From contig CBDIID010000003.1 of assembly GCA_965279515.1 (NCBI GenBank), forward strand, positions 800,001-864,000: a stretch of DNA of 64,000 bases. The letters run 5' to 3'. The notes below the pieces were generated by a model. The model ran no database searches, was not told the origin of the DNA, and saw only the letters and a program-made list of their open reading frames with translations. Origin of the DNA: Turneriella sp. Its GTDB lineage: Bacteria; Spirochaetota; Leptospiria; Turneriellales; Turneriellaceae. The number at the start of each line of letters is the position of its first letter. Position 1 is the first letter of the stretch. This document shows, in pieces, positions 13,188 through 62,924 of the stretch. The translations under genes and the position numbers were made by a program.

Positions 13188-14192
13188 TTATCCTTCAAAA
13201 AAGCCGCGGACCTTGCGCAGCTTTTCAATCCAGCCCTTTTTATTGCCGCCCGGATTGAAGATGACCGGCTTCAGGTCGAAACCGCGCAGGGTGTCGTGGA
13301 CAAATTTGAGGATATAATGGAACACCTTTTCGCGCGCCAATTGGTGCGTCACCAGCACATGGTGCGTGCTCAGATTTTCATCCAGGCTAAACACAAAGGC
13401 GCGTTTTTCACTCGACGAAATCTTGCGGAAGATATAATGCATGTTCTCGATATGCACGGTCTGGTCGCCGGTCGCATGGATAAGACAGGTCGGTTGTTTG
13501 ATGCGGTAGAGCCGGCTCTTTACTTTTTGAATCCCCAGCTTAAACGAATGCAGCGCCGGCAGCGTATAGGCCTCGCCATAACCGACCCAGGGAATCATCA
13601 CCTTCTCTGAGACGCCGCCCTGCGCCTTGGGTATATGTGTAATAAAGTTCTTGAGAATGCCCGACAAGAACAGCCGCGGGTCGCGCACCAGCAGGCGGCC
13701 ATTGAGAAAACCATTGAGCATTACAGGGGCAGAAATACAGATCATGCCGGTGGGGGGCGAATGTTTCTGCACCTGCGTTGCGAGATTCAGGCAAAGATTT
13801 CCGCCCATCGAAAAACCAATCAGGAAAAAATGCCGGAAGCGCGGCCGTTCGCGCAGGTAGATCTCAAGCACGGCAGCGAGCCAGTGTTCGTAACGCGTCT
13901 TCGCGAAATCCTTGATATTGGTACCGTGACCGGGTAAGAGCGGCGCCACAACGGTATGCCCTTCGCGGTGCAACAGGTCGCCGATGTTGCGCATCGTATA
14001 CGGCGAATCTTCAAAGCCATGCACCAGCAGAAAACCGACGTCGGTCGTGCCCTGCAGCCTGAAAGGCTCGGCGCCCCGCATGATCTTGATTGCTGGCGGG
14101 GGTTCCTGAAAATCGCGCGGATTGACTTTTTCGGGCAGACCGTAATGGCCGACGATGAAGACAATGGCGATCAGTACCAGAAGCCAAAACAC
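13188..14192 (-). CDS. membrane-anchored carboxylesterase (alpha/beta hydrolase)
   Basis: Likely GTG start 14192 followed by a TM helix; LLVHGF, LPGHGT, GFSMGG, D and H catalytic positions. Confidence 0.88.
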   Translation of the reverse strand: MFWLLVLIAIVFIVGHYGLPEKVNPRDFQEPPPAIKIMRGAEPFRLQGTTDVGFLLVHGFEDSPYTMRNIGDLLHREGHTVVAPLLPGHGTNIKDFAKTRYEHWLAAVLEIYLRERPRFRHFFLIGFSMGGNLCLNLATQVQKHSPPTGMICISAPVMLNGFLNGRLLVRDPRLFLSGILKNFITHIPKAQGGVSEKVMIPWVGYGEAYTLPALHSFKLGIQKVKSRLYRIKQPTCLIHATGDQTVHIENMHYIFRKISSSEKRAFVFSLDENLSTHHVLVTHQLAREKVFHYILKFVHDTLRGFDLKPVIFNPGGNKKGWIEKLRKVRGFFEG

Positions 14193-14232
14193 GAGGGAGA
14201 GAATCTTTTTCCCGCAGACGCGTAAAGAACCT

Positions 14233-14424
14233 TGCCACGTCCCTGTATCATGGTTCAAGCACAGACGACATCCTTGTCGGCTTGAACCTCCGTACATCCG
14301 TGTACCATGGTTCAAGCACAGACGACATCCTTGTCGGCTTGAACCTCCGTACATCCGTGTGCCATGGTTCACGCATAGATGACATCCTTGTCAGCGTGAA
14401 CCACGGCACATCCTTGTGCCATGG
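14233..14424 (-). repeat. 57-bp tandem repeat (3 full units plus flanking partials) of GGA-loop hairpins; candidate CsrA/RsmA-binding RNA
   Basis: Units start at 14249, 14306 and 14363 (CATGGTTCAAGCACAGACGACATCCTTGTCGGCTTGAACCTCCGTACATCCGTGTAC); seven ACANGGAYGT motifs on the minus strand. Confidence 0.9.
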
Positions 14425-14894
14425 ATCAAAGAAAGCGTATTGCCCTTGTCGCGCATGATAACTGCAAACCGGATCTCATCGAGTGGGCCGAATATAACTG
14501 GAGCACACTCGCGAACCACGAACTCACCACCACCGGCACAACCGGCGCGCTGATTGAAAAGGCGATCCGCACGAAAAATGGGGCGACCGCCATGGACCAG
14601 ATCAAAATCCGCAAACTCAAATCGGGGCCGCTGGGTGGCGACCAGCAACTCGGGGCCCTCATCGCCGAAGAGAAAATCGACGCCATCTTCTTTTTTTGGG
14701 ACCCGATGCATGCTCAGCCGCATGACGTCGACGTCAAGGCACTGCTCAGAATCTGTGTGCTCTACAATGTTGTCAGCGCCTGCAACCGCGCCACAGCCGA
14801 TTTTGTCATTTCATCACCATTGTTTTCGGCGCAGTATAACCGTAAGGCCCCGGATTTCAGCGAATATACCGGTCGCTACAATAAGGAGAATTAA
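14421..14894 (+). CDS. mgsA: methylglyoxal synthase
   Basis: IALVAHD, TTGTTG, SGPLGGDQQLG, FFWDP..QPHDVDVKALLR. Confidence 0.97.
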   Translation: MDQRKRIALVAHDNCKPDLIEWAEYNWSTLANHELTTTGTTGALIEKAIRTKNGATAMDQIKIRKLKSGPLGGDQQLGALIAEEKIDAIFFFWDPMHAQPHDVDVKALLRICVLYNVVSACNRATADFVISSPLFSAQYNRKAPDFSEYTGRYNKEN

Positions 14895-27659: not shown

Positions 27660-27666
27660 CCGTACT

Positions 27667-27737
27667 CATGGTCGACCAAAAAGACGGCATCCCTGTCGGT
27701 GAGCGACCCTTAGCCTCCATGCTCATGGTTGACGCAC
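27667..27737 (-). repeat. degenerate copy of the 57-bp GGA-hairpin repeat
   Basis: CATGGT at 27667 and again at 27724 (57 bp apart); AGACGGCATCCCTGTCGG core. Confidence 0.65.
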
Positions 27738-59955: not shown

Positions 59956-62219
59956 GTAAATTCAAATTTCAACGCCATCTCGAGCGCGTCGGCTTTGACG
60001 AGTTTTACCTTAAACTTGTCACCCAGCGAAAGCGTCTTCTGCTGTTTACCGGCAAAGATACTGAAATCGTCGAGAATCTGCACTTCACCGCGGCGGTCGA
60101 CCTGTGCGGCGTCGATATCCCCTTCTATGGGGAAATCCACCAGGGAGACAAACAGGCGTTCACTGGAAAAACCGCTCAGCCATGCATTAAAGGTCTGCCC
60201 GACCTTGCTGGCCATTGCCCGCACAGCAAGGAGCTTCTTATCGGCGCGCTCGGCTTCAAAGGCGATGCGCTCAAGGCGCGAGGTCTCGCGGCCATAGTGC
60301 TCGAGCTGCTCGTGTGTCAGCGGCAGGCGTTCACGCTTAAGATGCGCCGCCAGCTGAATATGCGTCACAAGGTCGGCGAAGCGGCGAATGGGTGAGGTGA
60401 AATGCGAATATTCGCGGAACGCCAGGCCCCAGTGTCCCTTGCCTTCGGGCATATAATTGGCCTGCATGAACGAACGCAGCAGCAAATACTGGAAGACCTC
60501 TTTCACTGGTTCGATCAGCTGGTGCGATAATACCCGGCCGATCTCGACCTGCTCGACGCCGCGGATTTTCAGGCGCGGCACATATTTCTCGAGATAGCGA
60601 TTGAGCTTTTCGAGTTTTTCTTTCGGCATGCTCTCGTGGTTGCGGTGCAGCACCGGCACATGGTAGCGCAGCGCATAACCGGCGACCGCCTGGTTCGCGC
60701 TCAGCATGCACTCTTCGACAAGGCGGTGCGACATGAGCCGGGCCTGGCTTTCGAGGCCAATGAAGCGGCCCTTCTTGTCATAGACCGCCTTCTGCTCCGA
60801 TAGATTGAGGTCGATGCGTCCGAGGCCGTCACGGTGCGATATCAGCGCCTCGGCAAGGCGCATCGCAGGGGCCAGCGGCGAGCCTTTCTTTTTTAGACTT
60901 TCATGCGCTTCCTTGTAGGTGAAACGTTTGTCGATGTAGATCACCGACTTAAAGAGCTCGTAATCTTTCATACGGCCCTCACGGTCGAACTGCATGCGCA
61001 CCGAAAAGGCAAGCCGCGTCGTCTTGGGCTTAAGACTGCAAAATTCATTCGAAAGAATCTCGGGCAACATCGGTATCACCGAGCCTGCGAGGTAATAGCT
61101 GTTGCCGCGCTTTAAGGCTTCTTCAAAAAGACCGTGCGGCACGGGAGGGCGTCCTTGCCCGCCGCCCGCAGTTGCCTCGTGCAACCTGGTTTCCGGTGCG
61201 ACGAAAAAGCCCACGTCGGCGATGTGCACGTCGAGCTCGAAGCCCTCGGTGGTTTCCATCACAGAGATGGCGTCGTCAAAGTCCTTGGCATCTTCACCGT
61301 CGATGGTGAAGATATAGCGGCCCTTTACATGAACGCGGCTCTTATCTTTAATCTCTTCTTTGACGAGCTTTTCGATGCCCTTTTTCTGGGGAATGAGTTT
61401 TTTCTCATAATCGTCAGGTAGCATAAAGCGCAGGCGCAGGCGCTCGAGGTCGCCCTTGCGGTCTTCAGTCACTTTGCGCGATGACGTCTCAAAGACAAAG
61501 GCGCTCGAACGTTCATAACCCTCGCCGCGGCGCGCATCGCGCAGAAACTGTTTCTGCGCGGCGCTGCGCTTGAGGTAGACAAGCTTCGCCGGGGCCTTTT
61601 TAGCTTTGAGTAAAACCTGCGGCCGGTCGGGCAGATCGATGAGTTCGGCCATGAAAAAACTTTCGCCTTTATCAGGACTACCCACACCCCGTGCGGCGCC
61701 GAGCACACGCGCCATATATTCACCCGAAAACGGTTCGACGATCTCGGTCACCTTCGCGGTAAAACGCCCGCGGTTAAAGCCGGTGATGGTGATCGCGACC
61801 TTGTCGCGGTGCAGCGCGGCCCCGCGCTCGCCATGCGGTATAATCGCTTCGACCTTAGGGCCCGCAGGCACAAAGGCAATGCCTGATTTCGCGGCGCTGA
61901 GATAACCGGTAAAACGGTTCTTGAGCCGCCACTCCTTGGCGACGAGTTCAGCCATACCCGAGTTTTTGAGAAACGTCAGAATTTCATCATTCCCCTGCGA
62001 GCCCTGCTCCCTGGCTTTGCCGCTGTCATTGCGACTGCGGCCCTGTTTGTTACCCCGGCGGCTTGTGTTTTTGCCTTTGCCTTCTGCGGTTTTGACTTCT
62101 GCTTTTTTTTCAACGACAGGAGGCGCTCCGCCGGGACGGGTTCCGCTGAGGCGCAGATCTCCCGATTTGAACGCGTGGTATAACCACTGGTCCATTGTTT
62201 TTTCTGTATTTTTTTCCAT
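59949..62219 (-). CDS. rnr: ribonuclease R (RNB family)
   Basis: FTIDGEDAKDFDDAIS, HIADV, PMLP.ILS..CSL, YSHFTSPIRRFADL. Confidence 0.93.
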   Translation of the reverse strand: MEKNTEKTMDQWLYHAFKSGDLRLSGTRPGGAPPVVEKKAEVKTAEGKGKNTSRRGNKQGRSRNDSGKAREQGSQGNDEILTFLKNSGMAELVAKEWRLKNRFTGYLSAAKSGIAFVPAGPKVEAIIPHGERGAALHRDKVAITITGFNRGRFTAKVTEIVEPFSGEYMARVLGAARGVGSPDKGESFFMAELIDLPDRPQVLLKAKKAPAKLVYLKRSAAQKQFLRDARRGEGYERSSAFVFETSSRKVTEDRKGDLERLRLRFMLPDDYEKKLIPQKKGIEKLVKEEIKDKSRVHVKGRYIFTIDGEDAKDFDDAISVMETTEGFELDVHIADVGFFVAPETRLHEATAGGGQGRPPVPHGLFEEALKRGNSYYLAGSVIPMLPEILSNEFCSLKPKTTRLAFSVRMQFDREGRMKDYELFKSVIYIDKRFTYKEAHESLKKKGSPLAPAMRLAEALISHRDGLGRIDLNLSEQKAVYDKKGRFIGLESQARLMSHRLVEECMLSANQAVAGYALRYHVPVLHRNHESMPKEKLEKLNRYLEKYVPRLKIRGVEQVEIGRVLSHQLIEPVKEVFQYLLLRSFMQANYMPEGKGHWGLAFREYSHFTSPIRRFADLVTHIQLAAHLKRERLPLTHEQLEHYGRETSRLERIAFEAERADKKLLAVRAMASKVGQTFNAWLSGFSSERLFVSLVDFPIEGDIDAAQVDRRGEVQILDDFSIFAGKQQKTLSLGDKFKVKLVKADALEMALKFEFTK

Positions 62220-62228
62220 TATTTTCTT

Positions 62229-62924
62229 CTATTCATGTATTTTTTGCCTGGGCCGCTGTTCGGCGGCCAAAACGAAATTGAGTTCATGCCCGTAGAGCGG
62301 TGCGAGTGACGCATGCTCCTGTGGTTCGGTAAGACACAGAATTTCGGGCGTGAGCAATTCTGTGCTGAGATGTGCGCTGCTGAACCGCAGCGGTTTCCAG
62401 GGGTGATGTTCTTCCGGTAAATCGCCTGGAGGGCCTCCGGGCCCGCGATTTACCTTGGTACTTCCTTGTACCCAGCTGTCTTCCAGGCAGAATTTTTCAC
62501 CGTCCAGTGCTGAAACCCCGGATACATCCAGCGCCTGGGCTTGCCGCTCCGGTGTGTATCTTTCACCATAGTAGAGTTTGGCATTCGTGCGCGTGAGAAA
62601 CCAGTCACCCGGCGCGACGCCGAAAAAGCTGCGCCACAGGCGCGACGACAGAAATGTACGGCACGGTATGCGGCGCAGCATCACCAGCATGCGCACGTAG
62701 GCAAAAGAAGAACGCAGCCCCACAAAGGAGCCAGGCCCTTCGCCCAGCCAGATCTCGGCAATATCATCCAGATCGGGAAAAAGTTCCGCTACCGCTAAAT
62801 CGATGGCGTTCTCTCCCTGATCGATGCTCGTCTTCGCAAAAATCAATCCACCCTGATCTCTGTCGATGCGCGCAAAGATCATTTGCCGGGTTGAGGAATC
62901 GATGAGCAGCGCGGGATAATTCAT
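62229..62924 (-). CDS. tsaB: TsaB-like tRNA t6A biosynthesis protein (divergent)
   Basis: LLIDSST, GEGPGSFVGLR; overlaps the tsaE stop (ATGA). Confidence 0.75.
   Translation of the reverse strand: MNYPALLIDSSTRQMIFARIDRDQGGLIFAKTSIDQGENAIDLAVAELFPDLDDIAEIWLGEGPGSFVGLRSSFAYVRMLVMLRRIPCRTFLSSRLWRSFFGVAPGDWFLTRTNAKLYYGERYTPERQAQALDVSGVSALDGEKFCLEDSWVQGSTKVNRGPGGPPGDLPEEHHPWKPLRFSSAHLSTELLTPEILCLTEPQEHASLAPLYGHELNFVLAAEQRPRQKIHE

Follow-up and report, generated by a model that had tools for sequence, protein, structure and literature searches.

The array of GGA hairpins that lies between the divergent esterase and mgsA genes in Turneriella sp. is very probably a tandem expansion of a non-autonomous, mobile palindromic repeat that occurs throughout the genus. 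This reading is backed by copies dispersed over the genome, by orthologous sites that are filled in some genomes and empty in others, by in-frame insertions in both orientations, by flanking direct repeats and by a variable number of tandem units. At its own locus the array is most likely carried along in the mgsA leader as a tolerated passenger, on the strand without GGA loops, although passive decay fails to explain the strict conservation of the loops. A preliminary description of the window (the whole 64,000-nucleotide stretch that was analysed, G000:C3:800001-864000 of the 4.9 Mb source genome G000) had favoured a CsrB-like RNA or a CsrA-controlled leader of the esterase, with a selfish repeat as the fallback. 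It is the fallback that was borne out, by at least 77 dispersed copies, by filled and empty sites and by in-frame insertions.

The array (Table 1) has a period of 57 with 3.3 copies and 89% matches, and is the sole tandem repeat found in the window with TRF. Its minus strand carries seven motifs of the pattern ACANGGAYGT (ACAAGGATGT four times, ACACGGATGT twice and ACAGGGACGT once), and both this number and the 57 bp period had been described correctly. CATGG junctions recur at 14249, 14306, 14363 and 14420. With seven motifs in 200 nt, the array is the densest GGA-loop cluster of the main contig, the other three clusters holding 5, 6 and 5. Local stems with at least three Watson–Crick pairs beyond the C–G closing pair were found for five of the seven motifs; a sixth motif (14351-14360), which had also been assigned to a clear stem, has a C–A mismatch after ACA/TGT. 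The compensatory differences reported for the mgsA-proximal unit are present. Such changes between units belong to the family as a whole, which keeps its loops and covaries in its stems, and are no proof of selection at the array locus. Both strands of the array fold strongly (z-scores of −5.99 for the minus strand and −7.56 for the plus strand), and folding therefore does not tell the strand. In the equilibrium fold of the whole array three of the seven GGA sequences are at least 75% unpaired; co-transcriptional folding could differ.

Table 1. Coordinates in the window of the array, its flanking features and further copies of the repeat family.
Feature	Position	Strand	Remarks
Alpha/beta hydrolase (esterase)	13188..14192	-	GTG start at 14192, set by comparison with homologous M(L/F)W starts in relatives
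Conserved block CTTTAC(G/A)...start codon	14190..14228	-	Between the array and the esterase start
Partial fourth unit or terminal direct-repeat copy	14236..14253	-	Seventh motif, ACAGGGACGT, at 14237-14246, without a good stem
Repeat unit 3	14249..14310	-	H1 loop ACGGAU 14294-14303; H2 loop AAGGAU 14268-14277; 55.3 bits
Repeat unit 2	14306..14367	-	Weak H1, loop ACGGAU 14351-14360, C–A mismatch; H2 loop AAGGAU 14325-14334
Repeat unit 1	14363..14424	-	Adjoins mgsA; terminal CATGG overlaps the mgsA ATG of the opposite strand; 63.8 bits with the held-out model
Hairpins of unit 1		-	H1 loop AAGGAU 14408-14417; long H2, loop AAGGAU 14382-14391, 5-nt 3' bulge
mgsA, methylglyoxal synthase	14421..14894	+	mRNA leader would bear the antisense (non-GGA) strand of the array
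Family copy, single unit	27666..27731	-	8-bp flanking direct repeat (CTCATGGT on the plus strand); downstream of aroK; one copy of the 8-mer in G003 and G008
Weak family copy	61128..61191	-	Inside a predicted 757-residue ORF; 21 bits
Family copy	62412..62478	-	Inside predicted ORF 62229-62924 (-); 39 bits

The flanking genes encode an alpha/beta hydrolase and a methylglyoxal synthase, in agreement with the names esterase and mgsA given earlier; gene calls were made with our own simple predictor. A 394-residue esterase ORF running through the array was rejected as an over-extension, since homology favours the GTG start at 14192. The CTTTAC(G/A) block is kept in all ten loci examined (the source genome and nine relatives) and suggests a possible esterase promoter, in which case transcription of the esterase would start after the array. 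A scan of 14000-14700 for the sigma-70 consensus promoter and for intrinsic terminators gave neither. Because the array adjoins the mgsA ATG, the surest transcript across it would be that of the non-GGA strand.

One unit of the repeat family is about 50 bp long and consists of a short hairpin (H1), an NGG linker and a long bulged hairpin (H2), both hairpins having C-A(N)GGA-(U/G)-G loops; each insertion adds 54–60 bp, usually 57. Genome-wide, 145 of the 1101 CANGGAYG sites have at least three extra Watson–Crick pairs, compared with 2.0–4.6% for 12 control loops. Selection by the loop only gave 28 loop pairs spaced 18 nt apart in the source genome, where six control loops gave 0–3. Among 66 such pairs from the source genome and same-genus loci, 223 of 264 positions are paired in H1 and 178 of 198 in H2, with 37 different H1 arms. 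The structure covariation in an alignment of 40 copies from outside the array, chosen partly for pairing, was above that of all 500 shuffles. A covariance model (R1), from which the array was held out, scores two of the array units at the values in Table 1 and also recovers the window copies at 27666, 62412 and, weakly, 61128; a profile search of the source genome gave at least 77 copies outside cassette arrays (one cassette-array copy having been dropped) at a threshold of 12 bits, the reversed genome reaching 11.5. No strand bias between genes emerged from this genome-wide count, the intergenic copies being unbiased in orientation (13 sense, 16 antisense, six divergent and six convergent). 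Replication strand is likewise unbiased (37 leading and 40 lagging). Copies in coding regions lean towards sense (24 versus 12) and G–U pairs are more frequent than A–C (17 versus 8), both of which weakly suggest that the RNA strand has a role.

Model R1 matches all 13 other same-genus genomes, with at least 22–74 matches each (150 candidates scored), and 57-bp tandem arrays of the family are also present at other loci in these genomes. There are no matches in the five other genera of the family that were searched, and one of 12 genomes from other families has matches. A draw across the phylum, with 34 candidates scored per genome, gave weak matches in six of 150 genomes and none in 16 genomes from the family in the same class. 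A pattern scan across all genomes gave 52 stretches, and all 12 loci above 40 bits are spirochete records; the top-scoring named records with the model are Turneriella and unclassified Spirochaetota. Other spirochete families, and a small number of phyla besides, contain related two-hairpin GGA elements (L173-L181, L112, L252, L265 and L293); of these, L252 is also a match to TD-2, and the TwoAYGGAY score of L265 is 39.2. Nothing can be learned from the co-occurrence of csrA with the element, since csrA is present in all genomes (31 of 31) and the element is found mainly in one genus.

A comparison of the array locus among relatives shows filled and empty sites. Of the 13 same-genus genomes, 11 yielded mgsA, and the gap between the esterase and mgsA is intact in nine of them, a count that leaves out G008 (partial mgsA) and G012 (different neighbour). 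The element occupies the gap in one of these nine (G001, with four motifs). At the G008 locus (L021; G008:C57), the C-terminal 40 residues of mgsA alone match beside the esterase, possibly as the result of a deletion across the gap. The mgsA leader of G012 (L013) resembles a unit of the window with both GGA loops deleted, and the element may therefore be long-standing at the mgsA site. A contig from run X1 with more than 99% identity skips exactly 114 bp, leaving one unit in which one GGA is changed to GAA. Six letters are shared at the joint, and assembly collapse is an unlikely cause of the skip, which was seen in one contig from one study.

Insertions of 54 or 57 bp, in frame and in either orientation, are present in transketolase, MurA, sirtuin, RdgB and FlgN, with relatives that have empty alleles. 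The transketolase gene contains an exact 18-codon antisense insertion in the source genome only (one of 12 aligned loci; 12 of the 16 loci submitted were aligned and 16 of 19 were fetched). In murA, GGA elements are found in four of 12 aligned loci (12 of 17 aligned, 17 of 19 fetched), in the same loop at different positions. The sirtuin gene has two 18-codon insertions in the source genome and short remnants in G001 and G002 (six loci compared). Elements are present at flgN in four of six genomes, with zero to about three units in relatives; in the source genome the element (G000:C3:3202905-3202970) lies in frame and in the sense orientation at the 5' end of the predicted flgN, the first gene of an operon ending in fliW–csrA. 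For RdgB, five of 14 genomes have an empty 126-nt allele, three have slightly longer alleles without GGA loops and six have alleles with elements; two of the latter are exactly 57 nt longer and two contain in-frame tandem arrays. The G004 sequence has an N gap. Alignment with PDB homologues shows 18-residue gaps for transketolase and RecG, and ThiC has about ten extra residues relative to its PDB match. An element near csrA that is conserved in G001, G002, G009 and G011 has no counterpart within the stretch of the source genome compared.

Of 67 single copies, 11 are flanked by exact repeats of 7 bp or longer at a period of 54–60, where 0.75 would be expected with the flanks swapped, and the matches peak at 57 and 54; the remaining 56 copies have no flanking repeat of this length. 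The empty alleles of the sirtuin gene and of the site downstream of aroK (in G003 and G008) hold one copy of the repeat. In many cases the left flanking repeat and the 5' arm of H1 overlap, the target sequence thus appearing to complete the first hairpin. Sixteen of the 77 copies start with CATG, five of which overlap a start codon on the opposite strand, as at mgsA, and the base profile of the copies shows no conserved ends. We infer that a trans-acting enzyme inserts the element and duplicates a few to about 13 bp of the target, which would often supply the 5' arm of H1; at the array locus the target would be the CATG of the mgsA start. The flanking repeats could then permit expansion and contraction by slippage or unequal recombination, yielding one, two or three units, and a factor with CsrA-like A-N-GGA specificity may select the loops during spread.

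No mobilising enzyme was found for the repeat among Y1 transposases, reverse transcriptases and integron integrases. There is no transposase between neighbouring copies, and no integron integrase scores over the NCBIfam cut-off. The sole Y1 transposase (L028:1440-1900; G000:C3 about 2616100-2616550) is flanked by GGGAATTAATTCCC palindromes and was rejected as the mobiliser, its palindrome being a separate small repeat family. The sole reverse transcriptase, a protein of 511 residues (L183:775-2310; G000:C3 about 1300240-1301775, minus strand), matches Drt8 with an E value of 5.6e-152 and adjoins an attC-like repeat and a GGA hairpin; it was rejected as part of a Drt8 defence cassette. The element was also rejected as a MITE in the strict sense, with no conserved terminal inverted repeats and no partner transposase found either as a Y1 enzyme or between neighbouring copies. 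Separately, two large arrays of lower GC content (G000:C3:95000-172000 and 3733000-3806000) contain about 70–90 co-oriented attC-like palindromic repeats of about 200 bp. Many of these have a single GGA hairpin at their flank, with a stem of 4–10 bp and always on the plus strand.

The genome contains both csrA and fliW, the presence of which the preliminary description had left to be confirmed. The two genes lie side by side and close the predicted flgN–flgK–flgL operon, the names of which were assigned from translations and gene order. CsrA keeps Arg44 (R44) and Asn55 (N55), which we take to be functional residues of CsrA, and its best PDB match is 5dmb, presumably the complex with FliW. Asn55, this match and the adjacent fliW mark the predicted protein as FliW-type. 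An ORF between the predicted flgL and fliW (G000:C3:3198827-3199204) is GxxExxY-like.

Hexaloops of the form A-N-G-G-A-(C/U/G) lie in hairpins at 207 of 1334 sites, compared with 1.7–5.4% for each single substitution and a background of 2.2%, and position 2 is free among the enriched loops. The free variation of loops among genomic copies that had been named earlier as a counter-indication was thus not seen; A-N-GGA is kept and the stems covary. The pentaloops AGGAG and AGGAU are also enriched, and agree with the CsrB repeat either completely or at four of the five positions. CsrA targets are given as RUACARGGAUGU from SELEX and CAGGA(U/A/C)G for the CsrB repeat in the accessible part of PMC7652899, and at the level of sequence the A-N-GGA loop pattern matches CsrA specificity. 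Nine of 39 H1 loops are ACGAG or ACGAU and have no GGA. Leptospira CsrA binds GGA hairpin probes containing AGGAGG and AAGGAG in EMSA, according to the available text of PMC8668096, where a CsrA-like ncRNA in L. biflexa is also mentioned. The two flaB leaders found in the source genome each combine a GGA hairpin with a further GGA at the ribosome site. From the CsrA-pattern loops, the Leptospira EMSA and the flaB leaders, binding of CsrA to GGA-strand RNA is likely in vitro, and binding to transcribed copies is plausible. GGAM motifs proved to be a false lead, appearing in the accessible literature as guanidine riboswitch candidates.

The selector of the loops is most simply CsrA acting on GGA-strand RNA, which we consider somewhat more probable than a mobiliser reading single-stranded DNA. 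Under the latter reading the likeness to CsrA sites would be incidental, the loops being recognized as single-stranded DNA by the mobilising enzyme and the covariation arising from template-switch correction of palindromes. This is a real possibility, albeit the lesser one; it concerns the loops and is compatible with the mobile-repeat explanation. It is consistent with the absence of a transcription-strand bias between genes and the equally good folding of the plus strand, with the H1 loops that have no GGA and with the GGA hairpins beside attC-like repeats on the plus strand, which in the larger array is the poorer of the two in long ORFs (19 versus 39). However, the excess of hexaloops with a free position 2 over all single substitutions is the CsrA pattern, and the enriched pentaloops agree wholly or largely with the CsrB repeat given in PMC7652899.

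At the array locus itself, a dedicated CsrB sponge or an esterase leader is unlikely. The minus strand could encode a CsrB/RsmZ-type sponge RNA newly co-opted from the repeat, for which the seven motifs (four of them perfect ACARGGAUGU) in the densest GGA cluster of the main contig, the retention of Arg44, the flaB leaders and the binding reported for Leptospira CsrA (PMC8668096) all speak. We nevertheless regard this as very improbable: the element is absent from the gap in eight of nine relatives, the near-identical strain contig has one unit with GGA changed to GAA, neither a sigma-70 promoter nor an intrinsic terminator was found in 14000-14700, just three of the seven GGA sequences are exposed in the whole-array equilibrium fold, and the CsrA is predicted to be FliW-type, with fliW adjacent. 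Fainter still is the prospect of a 5' esterase leader, formed by the array, that responds to CsrA. The GGA strand is indeed the sense strand of this gene, and a distance of 45 nt separates the last motif from the GTG, but the promoter-like block intervenes between array and start in 10/10 loci, no motif overlaps the ribosome site, the gene is without the element in eight of nine relatives, and family copies show no preference for sense leaders. The initial proposal of a CsrB-like RNA or CsrA-controlled esterase leader found no support, in view of the many dispersed copies without strand bias between genes, the relatives without the array, the varying number of units and the lack of a consensus promoter or terminator in the scanned region.

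The element is a mobile palindromic repeat with a TwoAYGGAY/TD-2-like core that scores below both Rfam cut-offs. With TwoAYGGAY (RF01731), as described in the accessible parts of PMC2864571 and PMC4333381, it shares two sequential AYGGAY-type hairpins and many copies per genome; those hairpins were proposed there as Csr/Rsm sites. The available text of a preprint (bioRxiv 10.64898/2026.09.22.753630) suspects a mobile-element-like expansion of TwoAYGGAY and places 1,693 of 16,086 Pseudomonas hits inside CDS, which are excluded in its main text; its taxonomic figure could include spirochetes. Positions of about 45–113 of the TwoAYGGAY model match copies in the source genome weakly. The gathering score of 43 is reached in none of 14 genomes (best 30.7), and the best score in the source genome is 24.4, with the array not among the hits. 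Most matches cover the model core only, and the CATGG/CCATG ends could pair, yet the units fold without a basal stem. The element differs from TwoAYGGAY in apparently having no long basal stem, in having no 5' repeat tract, in having C, T, A or G at loop position 2, in forming head-to-tail 57-bp arrays rather than divergent doublets, and in a mobility for which empty sites and in-frame insertions are on record. TD-2 of Treponema denticola (RF03162) is likewise a multicopy spirochete element (36 copies) with two AYGGAU loops and is not in a 5' regulatory position, as far as the accessible text of PMC1950547 goes. It differs in its extra middle hairpin and unbulged A/U-rich stems, and the best score of its model in the source genome is 18.7 against a cut-off of 48.7.

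In behaviour the element resembles RPE of Rickettsia and YPAL/RU-2 of Yersinia, which are also non-autonomous palindromic repeats. In the available portion of PMC2229807, RPE fuses in frame into conserved genes and YPAL has target duplications of 3–26 bp with filled and empty sites. The present element shows filled and empty sites, in-frame fusion and target-site duplication, the last being absent in most copies; it is shorter (about 57 versus 105–168 bp) and unlike both it lacks a conserved terminal inverted repeat, combines diverse stems with GGA loops that are fixed, and forms tandem arrays. The GTAG/CGTC REP sequences, in the part of PMC3733652 that is accessible, are similarly small palindromes with 20–100 copies, some of them intragenic, and the CGTC REPs likewise have no dedicated transposase. 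Unlike these, the element has no terminal GTAG/CGTC tag, is tandem rather than arranged in head-to-head dimers, is not enriched between convergent genes and is not beside a Y1 transposase (RAYT). Like CsrB, CsrC, RsmY and RsmZ, the array has repeated SELEX-type GGA hairpin loops, with seven sites in about 190 nt, but it has no conserved locus, no promoter or terminator found in the scanned region and a FliW-type CsrA system. Rfam Csr/Rsm models gave at the array only a 16-nt RsmV fragment with 11.2 bits against 100, and other matches were chance.

A literature search, largely of papers outside subscription, gave neither a description of the element for Turneriella nor a case of an AYGGAY-type element inserting in frame. 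The proposal that two-hairpin AYGGAY elements serve as CsrA sponges reportedly goes back to 2014. How their mobility relates to regulation is called unresolved in the preprint (bioRxiv 10.64898/2026.09.22.753630). With its filled and empty alleles, its flanking repeats of host origin, its in-frame insertions and its variation in unit number, Turneriella makes the questions of the mobiliser and of CsrA binding addressable in one organism. For the array locus alone the result is modest. It is also a caution that an array of perfect CsrA sites need not be an sRNA gene, and the family shows how conserved enzymes can acquire insertions in their loops. A bolder and rather doubtful reading is that of a SINE-like bacterial element with an RNA built from CsrA sites, in which CsrA would be a host factor for spread, 18–19 new residues would be brought into housekeeping proteins, and the many transcribed copies would together form a distributed sink for CsrA in a spirochete of the FliW type. 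If true, tandem arrays would be raw material for CsrB-type sponges.

Two further observations were made on the same contig. A 60-bp tandem array of the element is present in the predicted C-terminal extension of rnpA (G000:C3:3053896-3054447). Outside the family, the hairpin loops CGGGAG (40/99), AAGTCT, ACAAGC and GGGAC are also enriched on G000:C3 and probably represent further repeat families.
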